A DNA stretch of 33,763 bases from Fimbriimonadaceae bacterium (GTDB lineage Bacteria > Armatimonadota > Fimbriimonadia > Fimbriimonadales > Fimbriimonadaceae): the NCBI GenBank assembly GCA_046598515.1, contig JBKJIP010000271.1, forward strand, positions 1-33,763, read 5' to 3'. The position numbers and the translations under genes are program-made. The notes below the pieces were generated by a model. The model did not search any database, was not told the origin of the DNA, and saw nothing but the letters and a program-made list of their open reading frames with translations. Shown here one piece after another: positions 82 through 24,409 of the stretch (the first letter of the stretch is position 1; each line of letters begins with the position of its first letter).

Positions 82-639
82 CTAGCCCACGAAGAGCCGC
101 CGAAGCTTATCCAAGCATCGCGCTCGGGTGGGCCCGATCGCTCCGATCGCAATCTTCAGCCGCTCCGCGATCTCCTGATAAGCGCTCTCCTCAAAGTAAA
201 GGAGCTTTAGAAGCTGCTCACAGCGGCCGCCTAGTTTCGCGAGTGCCCGATGTAGTCCCTCGGTCTGGACGGCATCGATAGCCATGGTCTCGGCGGAGGC
301 ATCCTCGGCGGCAAGCTGCTCGTCCAGGTTCTCGAACCCCTGCTTCGATAGTCGCCGCGAGACGCGATAGGTTTCCCGAGAAGCGGTCGTGGCCAGCCAT
401 CGCGGAAGGGTCTGCGGATCGTCGATCCGATCGAGGTGCCTGTACAGGGCGACGAAGGTGCCCTGGAAGACGTCGTCACAATCGGAATCGCCGAGGCCGG
501 AGCGTTTGGGAATGGAATAGACCAACCGCTGGAACTCGGCGACCAACGAATTCCAAGCGCGTTCGTCCCCAAGGAGGCTTTTTCGAATCCAGACGCCATA
601 AATCTTCCCTTTTTCTTCGAAAGATGTATCAGCGTTCAC
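82..639 (-). CDS. ECF-subfamily sigma-70 RNA polymerase sigma factor
   Basis: 185-aa ORF. Region 2-like DDVFQGTFVALYRHLDRIDD...LPRWLATTASRETYRVSRR and region 4 HTH SAYQEIAERLKIAIGAIGPTRARCLDKLRR. GTG start at 639 with AGGAGAGGG a few nt upstream on the minus strand. Confidence 0.9.
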   Translation of the reverse strand: MNADTSFEEKGKIYGVWIRKSLLGDERAWNSLVAEFQRLVYSIPKRSGLGDSDCDDVFQGTFVALYRHLDRIDDPQTLPRWLATTASRETYRVSRRLSKQGFENLDEQLAAEDASAETMAIDAVQTEGLHRALAKLGGRCEQLLKLLYFEESAYQEIAERLKIAIGAIGPTRARCLDKLRRLFVG

Positions 640-698
640 GGTGACCCTCTCCTAGTTTCCACGAGCTGATAGAAAGTCAGCCAAGTAGGAACTCCAAA

Positions 699-1073
699 AT
701 GAAGAACATCTTAATCGTACTCGCAACCGCTTCCCTCATGGCCGGCGCCGTCGCTCAGACTGGCCGAGCCGAGTATCAAGCCAACATGGCCGGCCAAGGC
801 AAGGGCAAAGCCAAATGGCAAATCCGCGACAGCGGAACGCAGAAGCAAGCCGAGCTCGAAGTCGAAGGGGAGAACCTCACCAAGAACGCGGTCTACAAGG
901 TTCGCATCCTTGCTTATAGCTGGAATGTGACTACCGACGCGCTTGGCCGATTCACCCTTGTTCGACGGTACACGACAGCGACCCGCCCGAACATCCTCGC
1001 CGGAACGCAAGCCAAGCTTTATCGAGCGAACGGCACACTCGCTCAGAGCGGGGTTTTTATTCGAACCCGCTAA
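699..1073 (+). CDS. small secreted hypothetical protein
   Basis: 124-aa ORF with a signal-peptide-like N-terminus (MKNILIVLATASLMAGAVAQ). AGGAA upstream of the ATG. No recognised catalytic motif. First gene divergent from the ECF sigma gene. Confidence 0.6.
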   Translation: MKNILIVLATASLMAGAVAQTGRAEYQANMAGQGKGKAKWQIRDSGTQKQAELEVEGENLTKNAVYKVRILAYSWNVTTDALGRFTLVRRYTTATRPNILAGTQAKLYRANGTLAQSGVFIRTR

Positions 1074-1166
1074 CCAGGCTTCTCATCACCCTCCACCAAA
1101 GAAAGGCGCGGGCGTCCACGGGCGCCCGTCGCTTTACCCCACAAACTCTGTATCCTCTGAGGAAGT

Positions 1167-1682
1167 ATGCGAAACATGGAATGCCGCAAGCACTGGAATG
1201 AGCTGGTCGATCTGGCCGAGGGCCGAGACATGCCCGAGGCCACCGCCCATGCTTCTTCGTGCGATTCCTGCGGCCAGCGCCTTCAGGATCTCCGCGAAAT
1301 GATCCGACTCACGGGAGCGGCCGTTCACGTAGCGCCGGTCGAGTCCATTTCCCGTGCTCAAGCCATCTTCGCGCCCCGCCGCCCAGTGGTTCTGGCCCGA
1401 CTTGCGGCCGTGGGATCGGGCGCCCGCGCCGTGGCCGAGTCAATGCAAATCCGGTGGGAAGCCGATGGCCTCTCTGTTCGGCTGATGATCCGTCAAGAGG
1501 GATCGGGCTGGCAAGTTCTTGGTCAGATTTCGGGCACGTCGGCGGTCGAGATTCTCTACGGCGATGAAAAGATCGCCATCACAAACGGCGCTTTCGAATT
1601 CACGGCCCCGAGCTTGGATGAAGATTTCTGGGTCGATGAAGGTGAGCGATTAGTTCGCATTCCCCTCCGGTCCGAGGCGTAG
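1167..1682 (+). CDS. putative soluble zinc-binding (ZAS-type) anti-sigma factor
   Basis: 171-aa ORF. Cys6 plus H28-x3-C32-x2-C35 (AHASSCDSCGQ, nt 1248-1271) matches the HxxxCxxC ZAS signature. No clear transmembrane helix. Lies next to the ECF sigma gene. Stop codon is 2 nt before the CHAT gene ATG. Confidence 0.6.
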   Translation: MRNMECRKHWNELVDLAEGRDMPEATAHASSCDSCGQRLQDLREMIRLTGAAVHVAPVESISRAQAIFAPRRPVVLARLAAVGSGARAVAESMQIRWEADGLSVRLMIRQEGSGWQVLGQISGTSAVEILYGDEKIAITNGAFEFTAPSLDEDFWVDEGERLVRIPLRSEA

Positions 1683-1684
1683 CC

Positions 1685-4165
1685 ATGACTCCCGAAGAGC
1701 TGCTCTCTGCGTTTGAATCGGCTTCGACCCGCCGTCAAGCCGAGCGCATCCTAGGCAATACCGACATTTCGGAGGCTTTCTTCTTTCGGGTCGCCGCCCT
1801 CAGCGGCCAAGACCCTCGGGCTTGCATCCGCCTCGCACGCCGGGCCGCTTGGATGCCCACATCGCAGTTGGGATATGTTTATCGGGCGAAAGCGGTTGGA
1901 GCGAGGGCCGCCGGCAAGTGGCAGCTCGCCGCGGATTTCTTCTTCCAGGCCGCGAATCATTGCAAAGGCAACGATAAGTGGGCATTTTCCATTGGGGCCA
2001 TCGACAGCTTGGCCCGAGCCGGCAAGCCCGCCGAGGCGGTCGAGTACGGTCTAAAGGCAATCCGCGGCATCAAGAACGATGACCACCTAAAGGCGAGGGC
2101 GCGGCTCAATGTTGCCAATGCGCTGGTTTGGCAAGATCGAAACTCCGAAGCCGCTCAGGAGTACGCCCGGGCGCTTAATCTCTTGCCTCCACATGCGACG
2201 CTCGAACAAGCGAGCGCTTCGCTCGGGCTCTCCACGGCTGCACTTCTTGGTGACGATCCGCTCGCCGCTCGCGACGCCGCAGAGCGGGCGGCCCAGCTCT
2301 TCGACTCGGAGGAGATGACGTACCACGCCAATCTTGCCCGACTGAATCTAGCTCAGGCGGACTTGCAACTTGGACGGCCAGACGACGCCGTCCGACAGTT
2401 CCTCGAACTGGTGCCTGCGTTCGATGACTCCCCGCCCGATGTAGTTCGGATTCAGGAGTTCCTAGGCGATTGCTATCTACGGCTCAATCTTTCCAGCGAG
2501 GCGGAGAGCGCCTATCGCACGGCCCTGCGTTCGACCGCAATCGAGGAAATGCCTCTGAACTTGGCAAACTGCCGTTTCGGTCTGGCGCGCCTATTGGAGC
2601 GGAAGAGTCCGAAAGAATCCCAGCGCCTTTACCGCTTGGCCGCGCGAAGCTACGGTCAGGTAGACAACCGACCCTGGGAACTGGCAGCGAGCGGAAGAGC
2701 CGTGCCCTCTGGAGTTTCGAAGGCCGTCGCTGAACTGACCGCTTTGAAAGCCAGATACTTGACCGAGGACCTCGCCATCTGGGGGGCGGAAGCCGGAGTC
2801 TTGGTGATCCCGGCCAAGCCCAAGTCGCCGCCGCTCGAGTGGCGATATGCCCTCTTGATCGCGAGGCAGAAGCCGACCCGAGCGAACTACCGCAAGGTTT
2901 TCGAACTCATCGAGCGAGACCGGCAAGCCATCCGCACACCGAGCGCTGCTCTGCGATTCTTTGACGACCGCGGAGCGGCCGTCAACGAGTATCTCGAACT
3001 CCTCATCGATGCCGGCGATGTGGCGGGCGCGATCGACGTCATCACCCGATCACGTTCGGCCGCTCTTATCGATGAAATCGTCGCTTCGCGTGGACAGCAG
3101 CTGAGTCCCAAAGCTCTCAACGAGTTGAGCATCCTTCGCTACGCCTACGGAGCCGATCAAGCTCCAGGCTCCCGACTTCGCAATGACCTTCATGCCGTGA
3201 CTCCCCGGCAATGGACCGAATACACCTGGGATTTGCGCGCGGCAACCGACGCGGCCCGGCCGGCTCGCAAAGCCGCCGACGGAGACGTCTGGCTGGATAC
3301 CGGTGAGAGGATGTATCGCCTTCGGGGCGAAACCTCGGCGAAGATGCCCTTCACAACGCACGATTTAGCGAGAAAGCTCGACTGGCTCGAGTTCTATCTC
3401 TTCGAGCCCATGATCGACCCGGCGGCCGACTGGAACTGTCCGGGAGAGGCCATTACCGAACTCGCCGCCGCCATTGACACACCGAAAGGAACGGTTTGCC
3501 CGGACGGCGTCCTTTGGAGAGCACCCTGGACATTGCTCTCCGAAGGCGAAGTCACGCTGGTCCTCAACCCCGCTGACATGATGGGAGAAGTGCGGATGCC
3601 TGAGTCCCCCCGGGTTGCGGTTTGGGCCGCGCACGCCGTCGACCTGCCCTCCATCGATGAAGAAATCGATGCCGTGCTTGCGGCTTTTCCGAATGCCGAT
3701 GTGCTCACTACGCGGGCCGAAGTCCGGGCAAGCTACGGGCAGGAATATGACTTGATCCACGTTGCGGGTCATGCTCGGATCAACCCGGAGAGTCCGGCGC
3801 TCTCCTACATCGACTTTGGCGATGGACCCCTCCACGCCACAGAAATCGCGCGTAGCGGGCTACGCGTGAAACTGGCTATCGTGGCCGCATGCCGATCGGG
3901 AATGGCGCTGTCTCATCAGCGTTTCGAACCTGAGGGGATCGTTCGCTCCTTCCTCGCATGTGGAGCCGAAGCGGCGGTCGGCAGTCTGTGGCCCCTCGAT
4001 GATAGATTTACGGCCAGTTTTATGCGGGCGCTGTACCCTCAGTTGGCGTATAGAGAAACACTCCTGACGGCGATGAGCTCTGCTCGACGGCATTGCCGCG
4101 AACACTTCCCCCACCCCTACTACTGGGGCTCCCTAGCCACCTTTGGAGGCTATCGAAACTTATGA
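1685..4165 (+). CDS. TPR-repeat / CHAT-domain caspase-like protease (cytoplasmic)
   Basis: 826-aa ORF. The N-terminal half is helical and TPR-like. The C-terminal CHAT signature has candidate dyad His696 (DLIHVAGHARIN, codon 3770-3772) and Cys736 (AIVAACRSG, codon 3890-3892). No signal peptide. Confidence 0.85.
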   Translation: MTPEELLSAFESASTRRQAERILGNTDISEAFFFRVAALSGQDPRACIRLARRAAWMPTSQLGYVYRAKAVGARAAGKWQLAADFFFQAANHCKGNDKWAFSIGAIDSLARAGKPAEAVEYGLKAIRGIKNDDHLKARARLNVANALVWQDRNSEAAQEYARALNLLPPHATLEQASASLGLSTAALLGDDPLAARDAAERAAQLFDSEEMTYHANLARLNLAQADLQLGRPDDAVRQFLELVPAFDDSPPDVVRIQEFLGDCYLRLNLSSEAESAYRTALRSTAIEEMPLNLANCRFGLARLLERKSPKESQRLYRLAARSYGQVDNRPWELAASGRAVPSGVSKAVAELTALKARYLTEDLAIWGAEAGVLVIPAKPKSPPLEWRYALLIARQKPTRANYRKVFELIERDRQAIRTPSAALRFFDDRGAAVNEYLELLIDAGDVAGAIDVITRSRSAALIDEIVASRGQQLSPKALNELSILRYAYGADQAPGSRLRNDLHAVTPRQWTEYTWDLRAATDAARPARKAADGDVWLDTGERMYRLRGETSAKMPFTTHDLARKLDWLEFYLFEPMIDPAADWNCPGEAITELAAAIDTPKGTVCPDGVLWRAPWTLLSEGEVTLVLNPADMMGEVRMPESPRVAVWAAHAVDLPSIDEEIDAVLAAFPNADVLTTRAEVRASYGQEYDLIHVAGHARINPESPALSYIDFGDGPLHATEIARSGLRVKLAIVAACRSGMALSHQRFEPEGIVRSFLACGAEAAVGSLWPLDDRFTASFMRALYPQLAYRETLLTAMSSARRHCREHFPHPYYWGSLATFGGYRNL

Positions 4166-5373
4166 AAACCAATCTCATCCGCATGACGCTTACCCTGGCC
4201 CTGATGGCGGGCACCTTGATGGTCAATGCCCAGGACATGCTCATCGTTCGAGTGAAGGACCCGGCTTTCGCTTATCCGGTGGCAGGAGCGCACAGTCTCA
4301 CCGTCCTGGATCGCACCGTCGGCGCGCCGTTTGTGTACTACCGAACGCCCGTCGGTTCCGTGAAGGAGACGGTGGTGGCGAATCTGATGGCGGACACGCG
4401 GGTGGTGTGGGTGGAGGATGACGACACCGTCGAATCCGCCGAAAATCAAAGCGGCGGCAAAGGCAGCACTGTCGCTGCCGTGAACGACCGGACGACTCTC
4501 TATGCGTTCAACGGCTCGATGCTAAGCAAAATCAGCTTCGTGCCCGATCGAGCCCAAGCGCCGGGAAGAGCCGTCAAGATCGCGATCCTGGATACTGGTC
4601 TGGCCCGACGTTCCTTCGCGTTGTGGCACCGCGTGGTGAACAGTGCGAACTTCGTCGAGTCCGGTGCATCGGCCTATGACCAACCGAAAGGGACTGACTC
4701 GAACGGAAACAGCGTTCCCGACGAGGGCGTCGGCCACGGCACCTTTGTGGCGGGTCTCGTCGATCAGGTCGCTCCGCTTTGTCCCCTCGTTATCGTTCGC
4801 GTCGCCGACAGCGACGGCGTCGCCACCGCGTGGAGATTGACGAAAGGGATCGCCTATGCGGTCACCAGCGGCTGCGAAGTCGCCAACATTAGCTTGGGAG
4901 CTCCCCGAAACGTGGTAGCTCTGCATGACGTTTGCGAATGGGCGATGGCTCAGGGCTTGTTGATCGTCGGCGCGGCGGGCAACGACAATGACAACAGAGC
5001 CCATGATCCCGCCCGTTCAAGCAGCGTCGTCTGTGTTTCCGGAGTGGATGCCAACGATCGCAAAGCGAGCTTTGCGAACTGGGAATCCAGCGTCGCCTCC
5101 AGCGCCCCGGCAACGGGCATCAAGAGCGCTTGGGTCGATGGGACGACCGTGATCTGGCAAGGAACTTCCTTCGCTTCCCCGCTCGTGGCGGGCGGAATCG
5201 CCGATTCGTTGCGACGCCGAGCCCGGGCGTACCCGATCGACCTCCAGCGAGTAGCAAGCCGAGCCGGCGACGGCATCAACGCGTTGAATCCGAACTACGA
5301 TCACAAACTGGGTGTACGGCTTAACCTCACGAAACTGGATAACAGCATCAAGGCGCTCCGAAACCGACCGTAA
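4162..5373 (+). CDS. secreted subtilisin-family (peptidase S8) serine protease with propeptide
   Basis: Start moved to ATG 4162 (MKTNLIRMTLTLALMAGTLMVNAQ signal peptide), which overlaps the CHAT stop as ATGA. Triad motifs: IAILDTGL (Asp144, 4591-4593), GHGTFVAG (His192, 4735-4737), GTSFASPLVAG (Ser336, 5167-5169). I9-like propeptide region. Confidence 0.9.
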   Translation: MKTNLIRMTLTLALMAGTLMVNAQDMLIVRVKDPAFAYPVAGAHSLTVLDRTVGAPFVYYRTPVGSVKETVVANLMADTRVVWVEDDDTVESAENQSGGKGSTVAAVNDRTTLYAFNGSMLSKISFVPDRAQAPGRAVKIAILDTGLARRSFALWHRVVNSANFVESGASAYDQPKGTDSNGNSVPDEGVGHGTFVAGLVDQVAPLCPLVIVRVADSDGVATAWRLTKGIAYAVTSGCEVANISLGAPRNVVALHDVCEWAMAQGLLIVGAAGNDNDNRAHDPARSSSVVCVSGVDANDRKASFANWESSVASSAPATGIKSAWVDGTTVIWQGTSFASPLVAGGIADSLRRRARAYPIDLQRVASRAGDGINALNPNYDHKLGVRLNLTKLDNSIKALRNRP

Positions 5374-5553: not shown

Positions 5554-6054
5554 ATGCAGCTTTTGGATCAAGTCCGCGTCGCTAAGCCTTGTCCCGCTTC
5601 CTGGAGCGAAATGAGCGGCGATGACCGCGCCCGGCATTGCTCGCTTTGCCGATTGAATGTGTACAACCTGTCGGGATTGACCCGCTCCGAGGCCGAATCC
5701 TTTCTTCAGAAGGTGGAGGGCCGAGTGTGCGTCCGCTACTACGAGCGAGCCGACGGCAAAGTCATGACCCGCGACTGCCCGAAAGGCATGGCCGCCGTCC
5801 GGCGGAGTGCGGCGATGTCGCTTCTGATGATCGCGACGGTTTGGACAACCGCGGCATCATTCCTCCTCGCCAAACCGATTCCTCGTGCGAAATTCGAAGA
5901 AGTAAAGACGCAGGTTCGAGAGTCCGAGCCGATCAAGTCGATCCTCGACAAAATTTCTCCACCCCCTCCCGTCGTAATGGGCAAGATGCCCGTGACAATG
6001 GGAATGGTCGCCCCAACGCCCGCGCCGGTCCCGCCCACTCCTAAGAAGCCGTAA
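5554..6054 (+). CDS. membrane-anchored Cys-rich (zinc-ribbon-like) hypothetical protein with Pro-rich C-terminus
   Basis: 166-aa ORF. N-terminal KPCPASWSEMSGDDRARHCSLCRLNVYNLSGLTRSEAESFL block with further Cys in RVCVRYY and RDCPKG. One hydrophobic helix (AAMSLLMIATVWTTAASFLLA). PPPVV...PTPAPVPPTPKKP tail. Confidence 0.6.
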   Translation: MQLLDQVRVAKPCPASWSEMSGDDRARHCSLCRLNVYNLSGLTRSEAESFLQKVEGRVCVRYYERADGKVMTRDCPKGMAAVRRSAAMSLLMIATVWTTAASFLLAKPIPRAKFEEVKTQVRESEPIKSILDKISPPPPVVMGKMPVTMGMVAPTPAPVPPTPKKP

Positions 6055-7977: not shown

Positions 7978-9348
7978 TCAGATTTCGAATTTCTGATGCC
8001 ACGTCGGAATCACGGTCGACCAACCCAGTTCGGCCGTAATCTTCGCCTGCAGGGCAGCCTGAGCGGGCGGTTCGCCGTGGACGATGAAGGTCTTCTTGGG
8101 GGCGGATTTGAAGCCGCCTAACCAGCGCATCATCTCGCCCTGGTCCGCGTGAGCGGAGAGGGCGTTCAGCTTTTCGACACGCGCTTGAACCGCGATTTCT
8201 TTGCCGAAGATCTTGACGGTATCCGCACCCTCGATGAGCTTGCGCCCCAGCGTGCCGTTCGCTTGGTAACCGGTGAAGACCACCACGGTGCTCGGATCGC
8301 TCAGCCGGTGCATGAGGTGGTGAATGATGCGGCCGCCATTGGCCATGCCGCTACCGGCGATGACCATGAAGGGTCCCGGCCTCGAGTTCAGCTCCTTTGA
8401 TTGCTCGCGATCGCGCACGAAGGTGACGTTCTCGGGCTGCATGGGTGCGTGGCCCATCTTGAGCTCGCGGAGCATATCTTCATCGTGCTCTTCATAGGCA
8501 GACCGATAAAGGTCGGTAGCGCTGACAGCCATGGGGCTGTCGATGTAAATCGGGATTCGCGGGCACTCGCCCCGGTCTTGGAGCTCGTGGATAAAGTAAA
8601 GCAATTCTTGCGTTCGCCCAATGGCAAAGCTCGGCACAAGGACGGCGGAGCCGTTGTTGTAGGCATCCTTCATGATCGACGCGAGCCGCTCGTGAGTGTC
8701 CTCGGGCTTATGCAGGCGATCGCCGTACGTGCTCTCGATAACCAGATACTCAGAGAAATCTACTGCCGTCGGATCCTTGATGATCGGGGTGTTGAAGCGC
8801 CCAAGGTCCCCGGACATGAAGATTCGCTCGCCGCTCGGGAAGTAAATCTCGGTGAAGGCCGAACCCAGGATATGACCGGCGGGCAGATAACGCCACTCCA
8901 TCCGGCCGGGCAGGGTGTGGAAGTCGTCGTACGACTTCTTTTCCATCAGTTTCAGAGCGGCATAGGCGTCTTCTTCGGTGTAGGCAGGCTCGACTATCTC
9001 GCCGTGCTTGCTCCGGTGACGCGCCTCTTCTTCTTGCAGGCGTCCGCTATCGGGAAGACTAATTTTGCACAGGCCGACCGTGGCGGCCGTTCCATAAATC
9101 GGACCCCGATAGCCCGCCTTTACGAGCGCGGGCAAGAAGCCGATATGATCGATATGGGCATGGGTGAGGACGATGGCATCAATTTCAACGGGATTGATGG
9201 GAAATGGCATGCGATTGCGCGCGTTCAGCTCGGCGGAGCCTTGGAAGAGGCCGCAATCGATGAGGATTTTCTTCCCACCTACCTCGATCAAGTGGCGCGA
9301 GCCGGTTACCGTTTCGGCGGCGCCGTGAAATGTGATGCTTCCGTTCAT
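7978..9348 (-). CDS. MBL-fold beta-CASP family RNA-metabolising hydrolase
   Basis: 456-aa ORF. HAHIDHIG metallo-beta-lactamase motif, beta-CASP-like middle region, C-terminal SAHADQGEMMRW and IVHGEP motifs. Confidence 0.88.
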   Translation of the reverse strand: MNGSITFHGAAETVTGSRHLIEVGGKKILIDCGLFQGSAELNARNRMPFPINPVEIDAIVLTHAHIDHIGFLPALVKAGYRGPIYGTAATVGLCKISLPDSGRLQEEEARHRSKHGEIVEPAYTEEDAYAALKLMEKKSYDDFHTLPGRMEWRYLPAGHILGSAFTEIYFPSGERIFMSGDLGRFNTPIIKDPTAVDFSEYLVIESTYGDRLHKPEDTHERLASIMKDAYNNGSAVLVPSFAIGRTQELLYFIHELQDRGECPRIPIYIDSPMAVSATDLYRSAYEEHDEDMLRELKMGHAPMQPENVTFVRDREQSKELNSRPGPFMVIAGSGMANGGRIIHHLMHRLSDPSTVVVFTGYQANGTLGRKLIEGADTVKIFGKEIAVQARVEKLNALSAHADQGEMMRWLGGFKSAPKKTFIVHGEPPAQAALQAKITAELGWSTVIPTWHQKFEI

Positions 9349-9388
9349 TTAGCCTTATCTTGGCGCATTCCCTCCAGCCCGGGTTTGA

Positions 9389-9910
9389 ATGATCCTTCCG
9401 GGTAACCTTATGGAGATGCCGGAAGAGATCCCTGGTGAGGGCGACGATCTTAATCTCCCGCCATCCTTCTTTCCGATGGATGACGATCCGGACGCCGTAC
9501 GTTCCTATGGCGAGCCTGTAAAGTGTCATATCGAGGGCGTCTTCACCGTTCAGCAGGGCACAAATCTCAGCCAATTCGTGCTCCTCTCCGACGGCGAGCG
9601 AAAAGTGCCCATCTCCATCGGCCCGTTCGAAGCGCTTTCCATCAGTCAGGCTCTTGAGCGCGCCCGACCAGACCGGCCCCTCACTCACGATTTGGTCAAG
9701 ACAATAATCGAGCGTTTGCGCGGCGACATCGACCGAGTCGTCATCGACGATCTTTGGAATAGCGTCTACTACGCGAAGATTTATCTGAAGGTCGACAAAG
9801 AGGAGCTCGAAATCGATTCGCGCCCAAGCGACGCGGTCGCCATCGCCGTACGGTTCGGCGCTCCGATTTACGTTGCCGACGGCATTCTCGATCTTGGCGA
9901 CGAGGGCTAA
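9389..9910 (+). CDS. bifunctional nuclease family protein (DUF151/BFN domain)
   Basis: VLLSDGERKVPISIGPFEALSISQAL...RPLTHDL...VVIDDLWNSVYYAKIYL is typical of DUF151. The start could instead be ATG 9410 or 9416. Confidence 0.8.
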   Translation: MILPGNLMEMPEEIPGEGDDLNLPPSFFPMDDDPDAVRSYGEPVKCHIEGVFTVQQGTNLSQFVLLSDGERKVPISIGPFEALSISQALERARPDRPLTHDLVKTIIERLRGDIDRVVIDDLWNSVYYAKIYLKVDKEELEIDSRPSDAVAIAVRFGAPIYVADGILDLGDEG

Positions 9911-9913
9911 TCC

Positions 9914-10555
9914 TTGTACGAGGGGCTTTTCGACGGCATTACAAACATGCGGCGCGATGCCGATCTCTTGTCACAAGCCGAAAGTGGTGTGACAGCATGG
10001 CGAGTGTACGGATGGGACGGTCCCTGGGTGAGCCTTGGTCGCTTCCAGAAGGCGGATACCGCCCTCAAGCCCGATGCGCCAGTTCAGTGGGTGGAACGCC
10101 CCACCGGTGGACGGGGAGTCCTTCACGGGCACGACGTTACTCTTGGGCTCGCCTTCCCTCTCGTTGAACTATGCCCTCAGGAAGAGTGGCGCAACATTCG
10201 GGCCGTATACCGAGCCACTATAACGCCGATCGTCGAAGCGTTGCGGCTCTGCGGCATTGATGCCGCCCTCGGCGAGACCCTCAATCGGTCGCCCGATCTC
10301 AAGTCTCCAGACTGCTTTGCTCTGATCTCGGCCAACGACGTAGTCGACCTGGCAAACGGGGAGAAAGTTTGCGGCTGCGCGTTGCGGTTAACTGAAACCG
10401 CGGTGCTCGCCCAGTGTAGTATTCCCGCTGCCGCCCCGTTGGTGAATCCGGCGGAAGTCTATGCAGGAGCTGCTCCAGCCCATTGGATTCAGCTCGAACA
10501 TGCGGTTTTTGCCGGTGCCCTTAAAGATTTCATAAACAAGAAAGCCCGGCAGTGA
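9914..10555 (+). CDS. lipoate/octanoate-protein ligase-like protein (BPL/LPL catalytic domain)
   Basis: N-terminal NMRRDADLL (compare NMAxDEALL), SLGRFQ, ERPTGGRGVLHGHDVT and GEKVCGCALR (candidate Lys) motifs. TTG start 4 nt after the upstream stop. The N-terminal motif argues against the later ATG at 9947. Confidence 0.7.
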   Translation: MYEGLFDGITNMRRDADLLSQAESGVTAWRVYGWDGPWVSLGRFQKADTALKPDAPVQWVERPTGGRGVLHGHDVTLGLAFPLVELCPQEEWRNIRAVYRATITPIVEALRLCGIDAALGETLNRSPDLKSPDCFALISANDVVDLANGEKVCGCALRLTETAVLAQCSIPAAAPLVNPAEVYAGAAPAHWIQLEHAVFAGALKDFINKKARQ

Positions 10556-10564
10556 GGCCGGGCT
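10543..10564. terminator. hairpin terminator between convergent genes
   Basis: AGCCCGGC-AGTGAG-GCCGGGCT, 8-bp perfect stem. On the minus strand it is followed by TTCTTGTTT, so it best terminates the 10595-11155 gene. It overlaps the stop codon of the LplA-like gene. Confidence 0.55.
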
Positions 10565-10594
10565 TCTCGACGTTAAGGAGGAACCTAAAGTCGT

Positions 10595-11155
10595 TTAGAG
10601 ACCGCCGCCGCCCTTGCCCTTATTGCCACCTTTAGCGGCACCAGCACCACCACCGGCGCCTGGACCACCCGGTCGGCCGCCACCCATGTTCTTGCGCATT
10701 TCGGCGCGCATGGCCTCGAGCTTCTTCTTCTGATCAGCCGTAAGGACAGCTTCGGCTTTCTTTTGGATTGCTTCCATCTTCGGGCGCACCTTCTGCATGA
10801 TCTCCATGAATTTGGCGCGATTCTTTTCCCGGTCCTCGGGCTTCGCGTTGCGCATCTTTTCCATGTCGGCCTGGTAGGGCTTCATCACAGCTTCGCCTTC
10901 CTTCTGAATGGCCTCGAGCTTCGTCTTCTGCGCAGGGGTGATGCCGAGTTTCTTCTGAGTTTCAGGAGTCATCAGCAATCGCGAACCACCGCGCATGCCG
11001 CCCATTCGCATGCCACCTTGGCCGCGCTGCTGGGCGCCGCCTTGCTGACCTTTGCCTTGGGTGCCCTGCTTGGGTCCGGCTGCTTGAGCCGAGGCGGAAC
11101 CGACAAAAACTACGGCGAAAGCCGCGGAAACGAGTAGCGTCAAAACCTTTTTCAT
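10595..11155 (-). CDS. secreted Gly/Met-rich LTXXQ-motif (Spy/CpxP-like) periplasmic protein
   Basis: Signal peptide MKKVLTLLVSAAFAVVFVGSASAQA. QGGAQQRGQGGMRMGGMRGG tract. ITPAQKTKLEAIQ and LTADQKKKLEAMR motifs. Gly-rich tail. Confidence 0.65.
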   Translation of the reverse strand: MKKVLTLLVSAAFAVVFVGSASAQAAGPKQGTQGKGQQGGAQQRGQGGMRMGGMRGGSRLLMTPETQKKLGITPAQKTKLEAIQKEGEAVMKPYQADMEKMRNAKPEDREKNRAKFMEIMQKVRPKMEAIQKKAEAVLTADQKKKLEAMRAEMRKNMGGGRPGGPGAGGGAGAAKGGNKGKGGGGL

Positions 11156-11219
11156 ATTCTCTCTCTCAAAGCTCTAGCTTGAGGATACGAGTTGAAAGAC
11201 GCGCACGAAAGGCGGAAGT

Positions 11220-11957
11220 TCACCTCACCTCATCAAAAGAGTTCGCACGAGACTTACCAACAAGTTCCCTGATCGCCGGACGGTCGCTGTTTTCAAACCC
11301 TTCCGTGTCTCCAACGTATGTCAAATGACCCGCTTCGAGGAAGGCCACGCGGTCCGCGACCCGAAAAACTGACGAGACATCATGGCTAACAACCAGCGAA
11401 GTTACCCCTAGCCGATCGCGCAACTCGACGATTTCGGAGTCGATCGTGTAGGCCGTTATAGGGTCGAGGCCCGTTGTCGGCTCGTCGTATAGAATGACCT
11501 CGGGTTCCAGAGCAAGGGCCCGCGCAATGCCGACCCGCTTTCGCATCCCGCCGCTGAGTTCCGAAGGCATCTGACTCTCGATGTCCTTGAGACCAACGCT
11601 GTCGAGCGCTTCGCGGACGACGTCCGCTTCGTCCTTCCGCGAGAGCTTTCGAGTTCGACGTACTCCAAAAAGAATGTTTTCACCGACCGTCATGTAATCG
11701 AACAACGCGGCGGACTGGAACACGAGGCCCATTTTCTTGCGAGCGGCTTCGGCTTTCTCGGGCACTTTCATGCCGGCGACCTCGATCGTGCCTTCCTCAT
11801 AGGGAATGAGGCCCGCGATGCACTTGAGGAGCGTGGTCTTCCCTCCCCCCGAGCTGCCCATGATCGCCACGATCTCACCCTTGGAGAGTTCGAGATTGAT
11901 GTCCGTGAGAACGGTATGCGTCCCAAACCGCTTCGTAAGGCCCCGGACCGCAATCAT
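11220..11957 (-). CDS. ABC transporter ATP-binding protein (MlaF-like)
   Basis: Walker A GSSGGGKTTLLK, signature LSGGMRKRVGIARAL, Walker B ILYDEPTTGLD, H-loop VVSHD. Confidence 0.85.
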   Translation of the reverse strand: MIAVRGLTKRFGTHTVLTDINLELSKGEIVAIMGSSGGGKTTLLKCIAGLIPYEEGTIEVAGMKVPEKAEAARKKMGLVFQSAALFDYMTVGENILFGVRRTRKLSRKDEADVVREALDSVGLKDIESQMPSELSGGMRKRVGIARALALEPEVILYDEPTTGLDPITAYTIDSEIVELRDRLGVTSLVVSHDVSSVFRVADRVAFLEAGHLTYVGDTEGFENSDRPAIRELVGKSRANSFDEVR

Positions 11958-14279: not shown

Positions 14280-16562
14280 TTAACATAGCGCGGCGTCACT
14301 TAGAGCCTCAGTTGTCGCATAGTAGTACGGAGTGTGCGATTCGAACTCACCCGCGCACGTGTCGACCATCTTGTAACCGACCGGCTCCTGGCTCGGCGGG
14401 TCCTCAAGAATCCCCTTGATTTTGCGGAGGAACCACTTGTCCACGCGGCTGAGCTTGTGCACTTCTTCAACGCTCCACCCCCGCCGCAACCCCTCGGCGA
14501 TCGCCCATAGGCGCTCGTCGGTGGGGATTTTGATGGCTTTAGCCAAAGCCTCATCCGTAGCAGGAACCTCCCCCGTGGCAGGGGCTTCCCCTTGCGTAGC
14601 ATGACCGTCCCGGTCATGTGTAGTTCGACCGTCCCGGTCGAAAGTCTCGGCAAGCTGCTCTCTCACGTAAGTCCATTCCCAATCCTTGAGATTGGCCTTG
14701 ACTGGATTGTCCAGAGTGTAACGAATGCAGCGGAGATAGCCGCCCTGGTTCCTGATGAGATGATCGTAGTTCTCATCCTGCCAGAAGTCCCCAGAACGAT
14801 TCAGCAGGCGATTGATCTCATGGGCAGTGAACGACTTCCAAGAGTGAAGAATTTTCGGCAAATCGTATTCTGTCGTGGGCGTCACAACCGCATGAACGTG
14901 ATTGGGCATGACGGCGAATGCGTCAAGTCGGTAACGCTCGCCATCAAAGTGCTTCATCGCCTCGGCGACAATCGTAGCCACTCGCGGATCTCGGAGGAAG
15001 CACGCTCCGTGCCCAGCATCCAGGTATTCACCGATCTTATCGGACAGTAGCCTTTCGTGCTGTGCGGCCTGCGCTGGCGTTAAATGTTGCTTGCTCTTGA
15101 GTTCATCCAGACGCCGCCGCTCCTCTCGCCACTCTTCTCTGGTCGCCACCGGGACCGAGTCAGCGAGGCGGAAAGTCACGAAGTAGGAGGCTCCCTCTGA
15201 ATAGACGTGAGGCAGTCTTGCTCCCTTATGGCGATCCAAACCGGCCTCGGGATTCCAAGCGTAGAGGGCTTCTTCGGTTTCGACCGGGACGGTCGAACTA
15301 CTCATGACCGGGACGGTCATGCTACTGGATACGGAGCGGGGGCCGGCGAACTTTTCTAGCCAGAGATCCTTCGTCTTCACTTCTAGACCACGCACTGCTT
15401 TCAACAGCGCCCCCTCGAAAGTCCGGTCGATCGCCATGACCTCACCCGTCGCCTTCATTTGCGTGAACAGCGTCCGGTCGCCGGATGCGAACTTGTCGAA
15501 GGGCCATCGGGGAATCTTCACTACGCAGTAGTCCAAGGCGGGCTCGAAGCAGGCTTTGGTCGTGCCGGTGACCTGATTCTCGATCTCATCGAGCGTCTTC
15601 CCGCTGGCAATTTTCGCGGCGACGCGGGCGATGGGGTAACCGGTCGCCTTGGAAGCCAACGCCGAGGATCGAGACACCCGAGGATTGACCTCGATGATGT
15701 AGTAGTCAAAACTCTCCGGGTTAACCGCGAGCTGCACGTTGCAGCCTCCCTCGATCCCCAGCGCTTGAATGATCTTCAGCGATGCGGTCCGCAGCATGTG
15801 ATATTCGATGTCGCTCAGCGTCTGCGAAGGGGCGACGACGATGGAGTCGCCCGTATGCACGCCCATCGGGTCGAAGTTCTCCATGTTGCAAACCGTAATG
15901 CAGGTTCCCTTCGAGTCACGCATGACCTCATACTCGACTTCTTTCCAGCCCAGCAGACTCCGCTCGATCATGATCTGGGAGCGCAAGGAAAGCTTGAGAC
16001 CGTTGTTGCCGATCTCCCAGAGCTCTTCCGGCGTGTTCGCGATGCCGCCGCCGGTACCGCCGAGCGTATAAGCCGGGCGAACGATGCAGGGATACGGCGC
16101 AGTTTCCAGGAGTGCTTTGAGTTCATCCGGATTCTGGATGATCCAGCTCTCCGGAACGGGCTCGCGGATCTCCCGCATGAGGGCTCGGAACTCGTCTCGA
16201 TCTTCTGCCTTTCGAATGGCGCTGAGGGGTGTGCCCAACACTCGAACGTTGTATTTCTCGATGATTCCGGCGTCTTCGAGTTGAATCGCGAGATTCAAGC
16301 CGGTTTGACCACCAAGAGTGGGCAACAGGGCATCTGGCCGCTCCCGAGCGATTACTCGCTCGCAGAAGTCCACATTCAACGGCTCGATATAGAGCGCATC
16401 CGCCACTCCGGGATCAGTCATGATCGTGGCAGGATTCGAATTGATAAGGACGACTTGGTGCCCCTCTTCTTTTAGGGACTTGCATGCCTGAGTGCCGGCA
16501 TAATCAAATTCGGCCGCTTGCCCGATGACGATTGGGCCGGAGCCGATAACGAGAACTTTCAT
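14280..16562 (-). CDS. carB: carbamoyl-phosphate synthase large subunit, N-terminal half only, carrying an in-frame RAYT transposase insertion (aa ~409-669)
   Basis: [51 protein letters not shown]..., ATP-grasp core, [20 protein letters not shown], then oligomerisation-domain sequence [17 protein letters not shown]...VDKWFL...[18 protein letters not shown]. The ORF stops where full-length CarB would begin its second ATP-grasp half. It is a single uninterrupted 760-aa frame. Confidence 0.85.
14596..14642 (+). repeat. REP doublet (GTAG-CATGACCGTCCCGGTCATG-t-GTAG-TTCGACCGTCCCGGTCGAA)
   Basis: Two perfect hairpins (8-bp stem, 3-nt loop), each preceded by GTAG. Translated within the carB frame as [15 protein letters not shown]. 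Confidence 0.85.
15279..15325 (-). repeat. REP doublet, inverted copy
   Basis: Its reverse complement matches 14596-14642 at 46/47 positions. Translated within the carB frame as [15 protein letters not shown]. Confidence 0.85.
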
Positions 16563-22941: not shown

Positions 22942-23071
22942 TAACCCTCCTAGCTTGCGTAAGTGTTAGCATAACGCACCGCAACTGGAATTAGGTTGCA
23001 TTCGGACCAAATGGCCTGGAAAATTACGACAGGAAATGACGCTTGCAAGTCGTTTACCAGGGCCGTACGTA

Positions 23072-23246
23072 GCCTGGACTCGGTTGGAGGCTGGTCGGCA
23101 CACCCATACGAGGGCGTATGGTGTGAACAAGCTCCGGAGCCTGGACTCAGTTTGGAAGCTGGTCGCCAAACCACACGAGGGCGTTTGGTGTGAACAATTT
23201 CCGCCAATGTTAACGGCACACGCCCTCGTGTGTCGTGCCTACCAGC
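23072..23246. repeat. REP-like family-2 cluster: two 67-bp tandem units plus one inverted copy
   Basis: Unit 1 at 23072-23138 and unit 2 at 23139-23205 (GCCTGGACTC.G.TTGGA.GCTGGTCG.C...ACGAGGGCGT.TGGTGTGAACAA). Inverted core copy at 23207-23246 (CACACG-CCCT-CGTGTG). Confidence 0.75.
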
Positions 23247-23251
23247 ATTGC

Positions 23252-24409
23252 TTAGTCGTTTACCAGGGCCTTGCGTTCCAACTCTAGCCGGCGAACCTCC
23301 CCGCCAGATGAAATGGAGAGGGCGACCTTGGTGCCGACCTTGCCGTCGAGGATCGCTTCGAGCTCCCGATAGCCGATCGCGCCGAGCATGTCCTTGCCAT
23401 CGATCGAGAGAATCGTATCTCCGCGCTTAATGCCGGCTTCCTTGGCCGGACTTTCGGGCGAGACATTGGCGATCCGCACGCGGCCCGTAGCTTCGTGCCA
23501 GATTGCCGCCATGCCAATCGAACCGGTCGGCTCATTACCCACGCTGCCGGTCCAGTTTTCGAGCCAGACGCGCCGACGATCGTAGTCGATCGTGATGTTG
23601 AAATTCTTCAAGAAACCGTAGCCGATCGTCCCGTCACCCTCAGCCGAACTAGAAGGTAGGTCGATAATGCTCCAATAGCTCTCCGGAACCTTGACGCCGA
23701 AGATCGTCAAGTCGGTCATCTTCTTGTACCAACTGTCTACCGGGCCCGATGCCACCATCGCTTGCACCATGTAACGAGGAGTTTTATCACTCTTCCATTC
23801 GCCGATCCGCTCGAGGACATCGCGGTGAGTGGTCGCGTAGAATCCGTTGCCCGTGTCAAGCGCCAAGATCATCCGCTTACCGGAGGCGGTTTTGACTTCG
23901 GCTTCCACCGAGTTATGCCCGATCGGGAGCATCTTGAGAAGGAAAGTCTTGACGTTGTCCGGAGTTTTCTTTGTAATGTCGTAGCTCGGAGGGTGGAAGA
24001 TGAATTTCTTGTTTTGGAAGCTGATCTCGGTGATCTCGTTCTTGATCACATCGAAGCCCATGATTCCGTCGCAGTGAGTGTTATAGGCAAAACTGAAATC
24101 GGCAGGCTGCATAACCGCCTCGTGCTCGCCGCTGATCTTCTTGGAACCGAGACTTACCGACTTCAACTTGACGGTCTCGGCTTGGAACTCTCCCACGAAA
24201 TCGCGGAGGGTCATCTTGCCCGTGGCCTTTCCGAGAGAAATGTTGTTGTCGACGACGAAAGCCCCGCCGAACCCAGTGTCGAACATGAAGGACAACTTGC
24301 GGTCATTCAACGTGGCGTCGACGATGATCGCATTCTCACCGACGCGAAACGGCACTTCGACGCGCTCTTGCGTCAAGTTCAGGGCAATAAGGGCGGCTAA
24401 CATTGGCAT
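23252..24409 (-). CDS. double retropepsin-like aspartyl protease with C-terminal PDZ domain
   Basis: Two DTG motifs (SFMFDTGFGGAFVV and ILALDTGNGFYAT). C-terminal PDZ-like segment GRVRIANVSPESPAKEAGIKRGDTILSIDGKDM. Short hydrophobic N-terminus MPMLAALIALNL. Confidence 0.75.
   Translation of the reverse strand: MPMLAALIALNLTQERVEVPFRVGENAIIVDATLNDRKLSFMFDTGFGGAFVVDNNISLGKATGKMTLRDFVGEFQAETVKLKSVSLGSKKISGEHEAVMQPADFSFAYNTHCDGIMGFDVIKNEITEISFQNKKFIFHPPSYDITKKTPDNVKTFLLKMLPIGHNSVEAEVKTASGKRMILALDTGNGFYATTHRDVLERIGEWKSDKTPRYMVQAMVASGPVDSWYKKMTDLTIFGVKVPESYWSIIDLPSSSAEGDGTIGYGFLKNFNITIDYDRRRVWLENWTGSVGNEPTGSIGMAAIWHEATGRVRIANVSPESPAKEAGIKRGDTILSIDGKDMLGAIGYRELEAILDGKVGTKVALSISSGGEVRRLELERKALVND

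Follow-up and report, generated by a model that had tools for sequence, protein, structure and literature searches.

A conserved module of ECF sigma factor, soluble anti-sigma-like protein, TPR-CHAT protease and secreted subtilase: a candidate CRISPR-independent sigma switch

Introduction

Gating of a sigma factor of the extracytoplasmic function (ECF) type by a caspase-like protease that joins tetratricopeptide repeats (TPR) to a CHAT domain has so far been known from only two settings: the type III-E CRISPR craspase, in which Csx29 was shown experimentally to cleave the sigma inhibitor (PMC10028731), and the membrane anti-sigma factor DdvA of Myxococcus xanthus, for which cleavage is proposed (PMC11506125). 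Here we analyse a stretch of 33,763 nucleotides (the window) from a Fimbriimonadaceae bacterium of the phylum Armatimonadota (GenBank assembly GCA_046598515.1, contig JBKJIP010000271.1, forward strand), in which genes for an ECF sigma factor, a putative soluble anti-sigma protein of 171 aa with a zinc-binding anti-sigma (ZAS) domain, a TPR-CHAT protease and a secreted subtilase of family S8 form a conserved module (Table 1). We incline, with some reserve, to the view that this module is a CRISPR-independent, protease-released ECF sigma switch, in which the CHAT protease would cut the anti-sigma protein and thereby free the sigma factor.

Like the module, the craspase (PMC10028731) encodes a TPR-CHAT protein beside an ECF-type sigma factor and a soluble two-domain inhibitor with a flexible joint; Csx29 is also the best fold match of the module CHAT protein in the PDB, and the proposed logic, in which the protease cuts the inhibitor and the sigma factor is freed, is shared. 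However, the module has no Cas7-11, crRNA, CRISPR array or csx31, so that its trigger cannot be a target RNA. Its inhibitor combines a predicted ZAS domain with a beta-sandwich and is not Csx30, its CHAT protein is not a Csx29 orthologue, and a secreted S8 subtilase is coupled to CHAT. In its proposed working the module is like the craspase, but it is not a member of the type III-E accessory modules.

The known system that is nearest in its parts is DdvS/DdvA, in which a transmembrane (TM) helix joins a ZAS anti-sigma domain to a periplasmic TPR-CHAT in one fused chain; self-cleavage of DdvA has been proposed, with CHAT-mediated cutting of the linker as the proposed first step, and only Myxococcota and one Comamonas are reported to have the fused architecture (PMC11506125). 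Both systems have a zinc anti-sigma domain of the CHCC type and a TPR-CHAT with a His-Cys dyad. In the module, by contrast, these functions lie on two separate soluble cytoplasmic proteins with no TM helix, and an RseP-type intramembrane step is therefore not expected. The module also adds a beta-sandwich domain and an S8 gene, and its split type occurs in Armatimonadota, Betaproteobacteria and Actinobacteria.

A third precedent is the actinobacterial group ECF54, whose conserved neighbours carry carboxypeptidase, subtilase and CHAT domains according to a passage in a review that cites Huang et al. 2015 (PMC8999054). The group has been described as having no anti-sigma factor (PMC8999054, PMC7826278), and proteolytic control has been proposed for it (PMC8999054), whereas the 2021 re-classification names a 4Fe-4S protein, and not CHAT, as its neighbour (PMC7826278). 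The neighbourhood of the module has the same content as that passage describes, and the actinobacterial module sigma is 47% identical to that of the window; unlike ECF54 as described, the module has a small protein that carries a predicted ZAS anti-sigma domain. Perhaps the 'carboxypeptidase' of the ECF54 description is the CarboxypepD_reg-like sandwich of this small protein, in which case ECF54 does have an anti-sigma factor that was overlooked. We regard this likeness of neighbourhood and sequence as a lead. The module also differs from CalpL/CalpT/CalpS of type III-B systems and from DegS-RseP/RseA/RpoE (bioRxiv 10.1101/2023.06.23.546230, PMC10028731), which use Lon-SAVED and S1/S2P proteases instead of a clan CD CHAT protease and respond to cyclic oligoadenylate and to envelope stress, whereas the module has no second messenger, cyclase or membrane anchor.

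The module itself was not described in the literature that we searched. Its logic and most of its parts have precedents, and the gene association has already been glimpsed in ECF surveys. An initial sequence-only reading of the window had held that no stand-alone switch of this kind had been described, which was too strong, as the craspase, DdvA and the CHAT/subtilase context of ECF54 precede it. What is new, and in part supported, is the free-standing, soluble, two-protein form of the TPR-CHAT/anti-sigma/ECF theme with a coupled secreted subtilase.

Results and discussion

The module is conserved in at least three phyla

The five open reading frames (ORFs) that the sequence-only reading had described, with their junctions, the CHCC residues, the catalytic dyad and the triad, were all found where it had placed them, with every motif intact. 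We compared the window with 50 non-identical related loci from genomes and metagenomes, of which 34 had enough DNA upstream of CHAT, and 34 enough downstream, to be evaluated. A sigma gene lies upstream of CHAT in 33 of the former, and an S8 gene downstream of CHAT in all 34 of the latter. The gap between sigma and CHAT is filled by a small-protein ORF in the loci examined, and in the prevailing arrangement sigma, anti-sigma, CHAT and S8 follow one another on a single strand. Anti-sigma and CHAT genes abut or overlap in the window and in its annotated relatives (in the window, 2 nt separate the TAG stop at 1680-1682 from the CHAT ATG at 1685), and CHAT and S8 meet in an ATGA overlap (4162-4165), a 4-nt overlap being present in 22 of 29 loci. 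Flanking genes, by contrast, are housekeeping genes that differ among loci. Because the synteny is kept while the flanks differ, the cassette is not a chance juxtaposition.

Full-length CHAT homologues were at first found only in Armatimonadota, in metagenome-assembled genomes (MAGs) of Fimbriimonadaceae, Fimbriimonadales and Chthonomonadaceae. Weaker CHAT matches led to the same architecture outside this phylum: Ideonella sp. A 288 and a betaproteobacterial MAG encode a sigma factor, a protein of 160-169 aa, a TPR-CHAT and an S8, and Nocardioides carbamazepini encodes a sigma factor, a 197-aa protein and CHAT, with no S8. Searches that started from distant members of the small-protein family arrived at the same four genes again. 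The cassette is thus present in at least three phyla (Armatimonadota, Betaproteobacteria and Actinobacteria), and the synteny, on which the proposal of the sequence-only reading hinged, holds both among close relatives and across phyla. The core of sigma, small protein and CHAT persists where S8 is absent, as in Nocardioides and at locus L057.

The 185-aa sigma factor of the window matches TIGR02937 (sigma70-ECF, 1.1e-22) and Sigma70_r2 (1e-08). Its identity to the module sigmas of Nocardioides (47%, 6e-42) and Ideonella (41%, 7e-40) indicates that the module sigmas are one group across phyla.

The 171-aa protein is a predicted soluble ZAS-type anti-sigma protein

By itself the 171-aa protein has no match in Pfam or NCBIfam, so that the anti-sigma label needed a family profile. 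An exhaustive profile search yielded 240 cluster representatives, nearly all of 160-190 aa, which are almost all metagenomic 'hypothetical proteins' in a cluster look-up; judged by sequence, the protein founds a previously unannotated soluble family of about 240 clusters. A TM-like segment is absent in 153 of 154 members examined. When the profile of the N-terminal 70 residues was compared with the PDB, the top three matches were RsiW (2e-05), RslA (0.066) and DdvA (0.27), all of them zinc-binding class I anti-sigma domains, and the alignment to RsiW extends into the fourth helix. HxxxCxxC is found in 116 of the 154 members, 107 of which also have the N-terminal Cys, and C6, H28, C32 and C35 are invariant in 59 ZAS-bearing members. 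Pfam zf-HC2 reaches 0.012 in two of 14 relatives, and the counterpart at L057, which has two tandem HxxxCxxC motifs, passes it (25.6 bits against a cut-off of 22.2).

The AlphaFold2 (AF2) model of the 171-aa protein has a mean predicted local distance difference test (pLDDT) score of 75, with four to five helices at residues 4-68, a stretch of pLDDT below 50 at 68-90 and a sandwich of pLDDT about 90 at 92-165. C6, H28 and C35 lie inside three consecutive helices, with C32 at their N-terminal edge and a fourth helix at 58-68. The protein thus has the HxxxCxxC motif and upstream fourth ligand in an N-terminal helical bundle that define a ZAS domain. This is consistent with the soluble ZAS-type anti-sigma-like protein that had been suggested from the sequence alone, a description that we retain.

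The most conserved residue of the family is Arg87 (142 of 144 members). It belongs to a G-A-R motif within the only low-confidence, linker-like stretch of the model, and a G-x-R motif is kept in the small proteins of Nocardioides, Ideonella, the betaproteobacterium and L057. We regard Arg87 as a candidate cleavage site.

The beta-sandwich had no significant neighbour in the PDB, and a fold search with the whole-chain model returned only non-significant immunoglobulin- and superoxide dismutase-like sandwiches (best E 7.7e-03), so that the anti-sigma assignment came from the N-terminal profile. Sandwiches of related small proteins from other phyla match CarboxypepD_reg (Oscillochloris, 1.6e-07; Nocardioides, 0.014; the betaproteobacterium, 0.023). 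The possibility that the 171-aa protein is a Csx30 homologue was rejected, as a profile search of the PDB (which includes Csx30 in 8eey) found no likeness to it and Foldseek with the 171-aa model had no Csx30 among the matches listed.

These data bear on a simpler explanation, in which the sigma and 171-aa proteins are a redox ZAS/ECF pair like RsrA-SigR, oxidation of the zinc site frees the sigma factor, and CHAT, S8 and the 124-aa secreted protein encoded beside sigma are cargo of the regulon, for example as a proteolytic stress, nutrient-scavenging or cell-death output. The CHCC spacing is indeed typical of ZAS proteins, the 171-aa protein is soluble, as is RsrA, and the promoter-like motif before anti-sigma-CHAT-S8 (see below) would make those genes targets of the sigma factor. 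However, 38 of the 154 family members, about a quarter, have no zinc ligands, and neither do the Ideonella, betaproteobacterial and Nocardioides small proteins, although the module is kept. A redox cue, which the sequence-only reading had entertained, therefore cannot be the general trigger. Moreover, CHAT still adjoins the small protein where S8 has been lost, and the residue under the strongest conservation lies in the linker, outside the zinc site. We therefore consider the redox explanation unlikely, although it is the alternative that we take most seriously.

The CHAT protein retains the features of a protease

The 826-aa protein matches CHAT (PF12770, 2.8e-27) and TPR families. Foldseek comparison of its AF2 model (mean pLDDT 85) returned Csx29 (8eey_B, 2.3e-11), separase (9e-11) and DdvA (8rw5, 3.2e-10; 8rot_A, 4.1e-10), each at a probability of 1.00. 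It has a caspase-like fold with a His-Cys dyad, as expected of a CHAT peptidase (clan CD, PF12770), and the judgement that the protease is intact stands. H696 and C736 are invariant in 22 homologues that are 28-63% identical to the window protein, and the invariance of the dyad and its surrounding residues at such distances speaks for a catalytic function that has been kept. The window protein showed neither a TM segment nor a signal peptide, and 29 of 30 family members have no TM-like segment.

The comparison with Csx29 and Csx30 that had been drawn from the sequence holds in part. The CHAT proteins are alike at the level of the fold, but the module protein is not an orthologue of Csx29, nor does the 171-aa protein resemble Csx30. 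Orthology was rejected because phmmer gave E values of only 0.75-0.87 against the Csx29 chains, weaker than that of separase (5e-03), and the likeness of fold is equally common to separase and DdvA; the family profile reached Csx29 at 1.5e-05, in an alignment that was confined to some 83 residues around the dyad. The CHAT protein is related to Csx29 at the superfamily level only.

The TPR-CHAT protein might instead be a non-cutting scaffold or partner-switching sensor that acts on the sandwich or the linker, or a protease with another target, such as the sigma factor or an unlinked substrate. The coupling of translation points to a stoichiometric complex, TPR domains serve in protein binding, and CHAT activity of DdvA could not be demonstrated, its dyad mutants behaving like the wild type in unstimulated cells (PMC11506125). 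Against this, the His/Cys dyad and its surroundings are invariant despite low overall identity, and the module encodes no other conserved candidate substrate. On balance, a scaffold or a different target seems to us rather improbable.

Two predicted secreted proteins accompany the proposed switch

The S8 protein (403 aa) matches Peptidase_S8 (PF00082, 3.9e-24) and is closest to secreted subtilisins (subtilisin DY, 1.1e-23). It has the Asp-His-Ser triad and oxyanion Asn of a subtilase, and D144, H192, S336 and N274, the oxyanion residue, are invariant among 29 homologues with at most one exception. A signal peptide and a propeptide-like region precede the catalytic domain; nearly all homologues have a signal-peptide-like N-terminus, and the exceptions look like mis-picked starts.

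Of the five proteins, only S8 and the 124-aa protein begin with a hydrophobic, signal-peptide-like N-terminus; the other three, including the 171-aa protein, have none. The 124-aa gene stands beside sigma in 16 of 34 evaluable loci, always divergent from it, and the protein is an accessory member of the module. It had no match in Pfam, NCBIfam, PADLOC or the PDB, where the profile search returned only FimG (0.19). We rejected the idea that it is paralogous to the beta-sandwich of the anti-sigma protein, as hhalign gave a probability of 1%.

It is tempting to speculate that the secreted proteins take part in sensing. The module may form a closed relay of proteases that leads from outside the cell to the cytoplasm, in which exported S8 processes the 124-aa protein or other extracellular proteins to a peptide that is re-imported; bound by the TPR superhelix, this peptide may switch on CHAT, which would then cut the anti-sigma protein, giving an RRNPP-like circuit with a caspase-like receptor and an ECF output. 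Export of both proteins, their common promoter motif and the translational coupling of S8 to CHAT are compatible with such a relay, to which we nonetheless give only a slim chance.

Some loci depart from the usual arrangement after CHAT. Two tandem S8 paralogues, not one, follow CHAT in the Armatimonadota loci L013 (8646-11238), L016 (8562-11161) and L035 (2607-5206). In L057, a 708-aa repeat-rich protein with a TM-like N-terminus (9232-11358) takes the place of S8; its many 'YAY/H...GW' repeats have a beta-propeller-like look.

A promoter-like motif recurs in the module

A bipartite motif, TGTAT[CT]-N17/18-CTC[CT], recurs in the sense orientation at three positions of the module. It lies in the spacer between sigma and anti-sigma, about 30-40 nt before the anti-sigma start, in strict form in 23 of 45 loci, and most of the remaining copies there are variants (e.g. 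TGAATC or CTCAA). It also lies 68-86 nt before the orthologous 124-aa gene in nine loci, and before S8 in two betaproteobacterial loci, where S8 stands apart from CHAT. The loci, 507 kb in all, contain 37 strict matches, compared with 15.5 +/- 3.6 in shuffles; 24 of the 37 precede an anti-sigma, 124-aa or S8 gene by no more than about 110 nt and point in its sense direction. Of 22 instances, 20 have a spacer of 17-18 nt. The complete copy in the window is the sole match to TGTATYN{15,18}YCTCY in its 33.7 kb and lies 74 nt before the 124-aa ATG. We infer that TGTATY-N17/18-CTCY is probably the cognate promoter of the module sigma. The sequence-only reading had regarded S8 and the 124-aa protein as co-regulated outputs, with which a common promoter-like motif fits.

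A TTTTC box upstream of GTATC was considered as a further promoter element and rejected, as its spacing varies from 7 to 12 nt and in the sigma/anti-sigma spacer it consists of codons of the C-terminal GFFE of sigma. In the window the motif at 625-652 (plus strand) overlaps the GTG start of sigma (637-639, minus strand), so that the 5' ends of the two divergent transcription units must overlap. In L001 (5455-5495) and L008 (3856-3900) only 1-2 nt separate the end of the second box from the first anti-sigma ATG, beyond which another in-frame start (ATG or GTG) follows after 6-7 nt; this suggests a leaderless or nearly leaderless anti-sigma mRNA. In L036 (4086-4440) a membrane-protein ORF lies upstream of anti-sigma, and the motif TGTATC-N-CCTCT is kept at 4438.

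In most relatives the sigma gene is on the same strand as, and directly upstream of, the anti-sigma gene, while in the clade of the window it diverges from the other genes of the module. Compared with all other loci (e.g. L009, L011, L020, L023 and L028), the window, L001 and L008 have the block of sigma and its divergent 124-aa gene in inverted orientation, which uncouples sigma from the anti-sigma operon in this clade only. A sigma70-like extended -10 box usually stands before the sigma gene, together with a very short leader, and sigma would thus be produced constitutively. The element TGTGATACA[AC]T upstream of sigma was first taken purely for an extended -10 housekeeping promoter; reverse-complemented, it gives the -35-like box of the motif of the divergent 124-aa gene, and this interpretation was kept only in part. 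Sigma70-like extended -10 boxes also precede sigma in loci that have no 124-aa gene, in Ideonella and in L057, which suggests housekeeping transcription of sigma.

The module does not match a known defense system

As the sequence-only reading had stated, CRISPR and gasdermin components are absent. Tandem Repeats Finder (TRF) found no CRISPR array in the window, no cas domain was detected in window ORFs of at least 200 aa, and the annotated relatives contain neither cas genes nor CRISPR. Likewise, no gasdermin, CBASS or other defense gene was found in the window or in annotated relatives, and the only other gene of the module encodes the 124-aa protein, which belongs to no recognised family. 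These negatives do not extend to the DNA upstream of window position 1, which lies outside the sequence analysed; at L001, the side that is equivalent to this region carries DUF4177, DUF1232 and PhyH genes.

Could the module nevertheless be an anti-phage or programmed-cell-death cassette (Borvo-like, gasdermin-activating or IetS-like), with the proteases as effectors and the sigma/anti-sigma pair tuning their expression? PADLOC gave domain-level matches to BovA (2e-07, CHAT core), 'subtilase' (8.6e-11) and IetS (1.4e-04), and the known links between CHAT and sigma factors stem from defense loci (PMC10028731, PMC11506125). These matches, however, cover catalytic cores only, for which reason assignment to a known defense system was rejected. 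The lack of accompanying defense genes, the housekeeping neighbours that vary between loci, and the export of S8 with a propeptide, as in ordinary secreted subtilisins, also speak against a defense role, which we hold to be very improbable.

A proposed protease-released sigma switch

The working model that we infer, which extends to the binding of sigma, cleavage by CHAT and its site, the dependence of the motif on sigma and the nature of the signal, is as follows. The soluble 171-aa anti-sigma protein would hold sigma inactive, with its N-terminal ZAS domain as the sigma binder, while TPR-CHAT would be latent and made in fixed proportion with the anti-sigma protein from the coupled genes. A cue would then act, presumably through the TPR superhelix, and CHAT would cleave the anti-sigma protein, most likely in the linker at or near the G-A-R motif. 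The sigma-binding fragment would be destabilised and sigma released. Free sigma would read TGTATY-N17/18-CTCY and so raise the expression of anti-sigma-CHAT-S8, which would provide negative feedback, and of the small secreted protein. Because the module promoter would drive both, exported S8 and the 124-aa protein would be the visible outputs of the switch.

Three lines of evidence suggest that CHAT is a regulator and not cargo. The sigma/small protein/CHAT core persists without S8. A quarter of the family does without the zinc ligands, whereas neither the CHAT dyad nor Arg87 is dispensable. Finally, the best structural neighbours of CHAT, namely Csx29, separase and DdvA, are enzymes for which cleavage of an inhibitor within a flexible segment is known or proposed (PMC10028731, PMC11506125).

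Several observations weigh against this model or limit it. The link between CHAT and the small protein comes from gene order and conservation, and both AF2 models are of single chains; likewise, the proposed contact between sigma and anti-sigma derives from domain similarity and position. At E <= 0.1, Pfam zf-HC2 did not match the 171-aa protein of the window. Arg87 could be a structural or docking residue instead of a P1 site, and a factor other than sigma could read the motif. CHAT is apparently cytoplasmic, in contrast to the apparently exported S8 and 124-aa proteins, which gives S8 no evident part in the switch, and one locus (L036) has no sigma gene beside the module. In addition, the TGTATC upstream of anti-sigma in the window (1144-1149) has no CTCY box at N17-18, although at the same position L001 has a complete motif and L008 a near-complete one (with an ACTCC box). 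The hairpin that follows the 124-aa gene in the window was flagged by the scan on the minus strand only, its plus-strand reading being taken directly from the sequence, and L001 has a strong hairpin with T8 at the matching place. As the half-motif is incomplete and the hairpin weak, anti-sigma-CHAT-S8 of the window may be read through from the upstream promoter.

If the protease-released switch is correct, at least three phyla also have the logic of the craspase and DdvA, in ordinary chromosomal surroundings, as a free-standing switch of two proteins that is wholly cytoplasmic. The model makes specific predictions: the substrate would be the 171-aa family, the site G-A-R/Arg87, the catalytic residues H696 and C736, and the promoter TGTATY-N17/18-CTCY. 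Furthermore, the module may supply the missing regulator for the ECF54-like group that is listed without an anti-sigma factor, and it could yield a compact protease-to-transcription part for synthetic biology for which an RNA guide is not needed.

Features and neighbourhood of the module in the window

Table 1. Features of the module (nucleotide positions refer to the window, aa positions to the protein named)
Feature	Position	Strand	Remarks
ECF sigma factor gene	82-639	minus	185 aa; sigma2 and sigma4 domains only
Promoter-like motif copy, complete	625-652	plus	TGTATC-N-CCTCTCC
Small secreted protein gene	699-1073	plus	124 aa; signal-peptide-like N-terminus
Weak terminator-like hairpin	1104-1137	plus	GC-rich, then only TTT; downstream of 124-aa gene
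TGTATC half-motif	1144-1149	plus	upstream of anti-sigma gene
Soluble anti-sigma-like protein gene	1167-1682	plus	171 aa
Predicted ZAS anti-sigma domain	aa 1-68 of 171-aa protein		C6, H28, C32, C35
Predicted disordered linker	aa 68-90 of 171-aa protein		G-A-R motif; R87 encoded at 1425-1427
Predicted beta-sandwich	aa 92-165 of 171-aa protein
TPR-CHAT protease gene	1685-4165	plus	826 aa
TPR superhelix	~aa 1-520 of CHAT protein
CHAT domain	~aa 530-826 of CHAT protein
H696	3770-3772		catalytic dyad of CHAT
C736	3890-3892		catalytic dyad of CHAT
S8 subtilase gene	4162-5373	plus	403 aa counted from ATG at 4162
S8 triad	D144 4591-4593; H192 4735-4737; S336 5167-5169	plus

The window is ordinary chromosomal DNA of about 59% G+C with housekeeping genes. 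Directly after S8, on the plus strand, lies a 166-aa ORF (5554-6054) that combines a Cys-rich N-terminus (CPxxW...CxxC) with a Pro-rich tail and has a single TM-like segment; it had no family match and is not kept beside the module at other loci. A 760-aa ORF on the minus strand (14280-16562) carries domains D1 and D2 (aa 1-326) and D3 (aa 676-720) of the carbamoyl-phosphate synthase large chain, with an IS200-like Y1 transposase match between them (aa 528-596, 3.4e-06), and may represent an in-frame insertion or fusion in carB. Finally, the intergenic DNA at 23071-23197, upstream of a PDZ/aspartyl-protease gene (23252-24409), holds 1.9 copies of a 67-bp unit with 86% identity.

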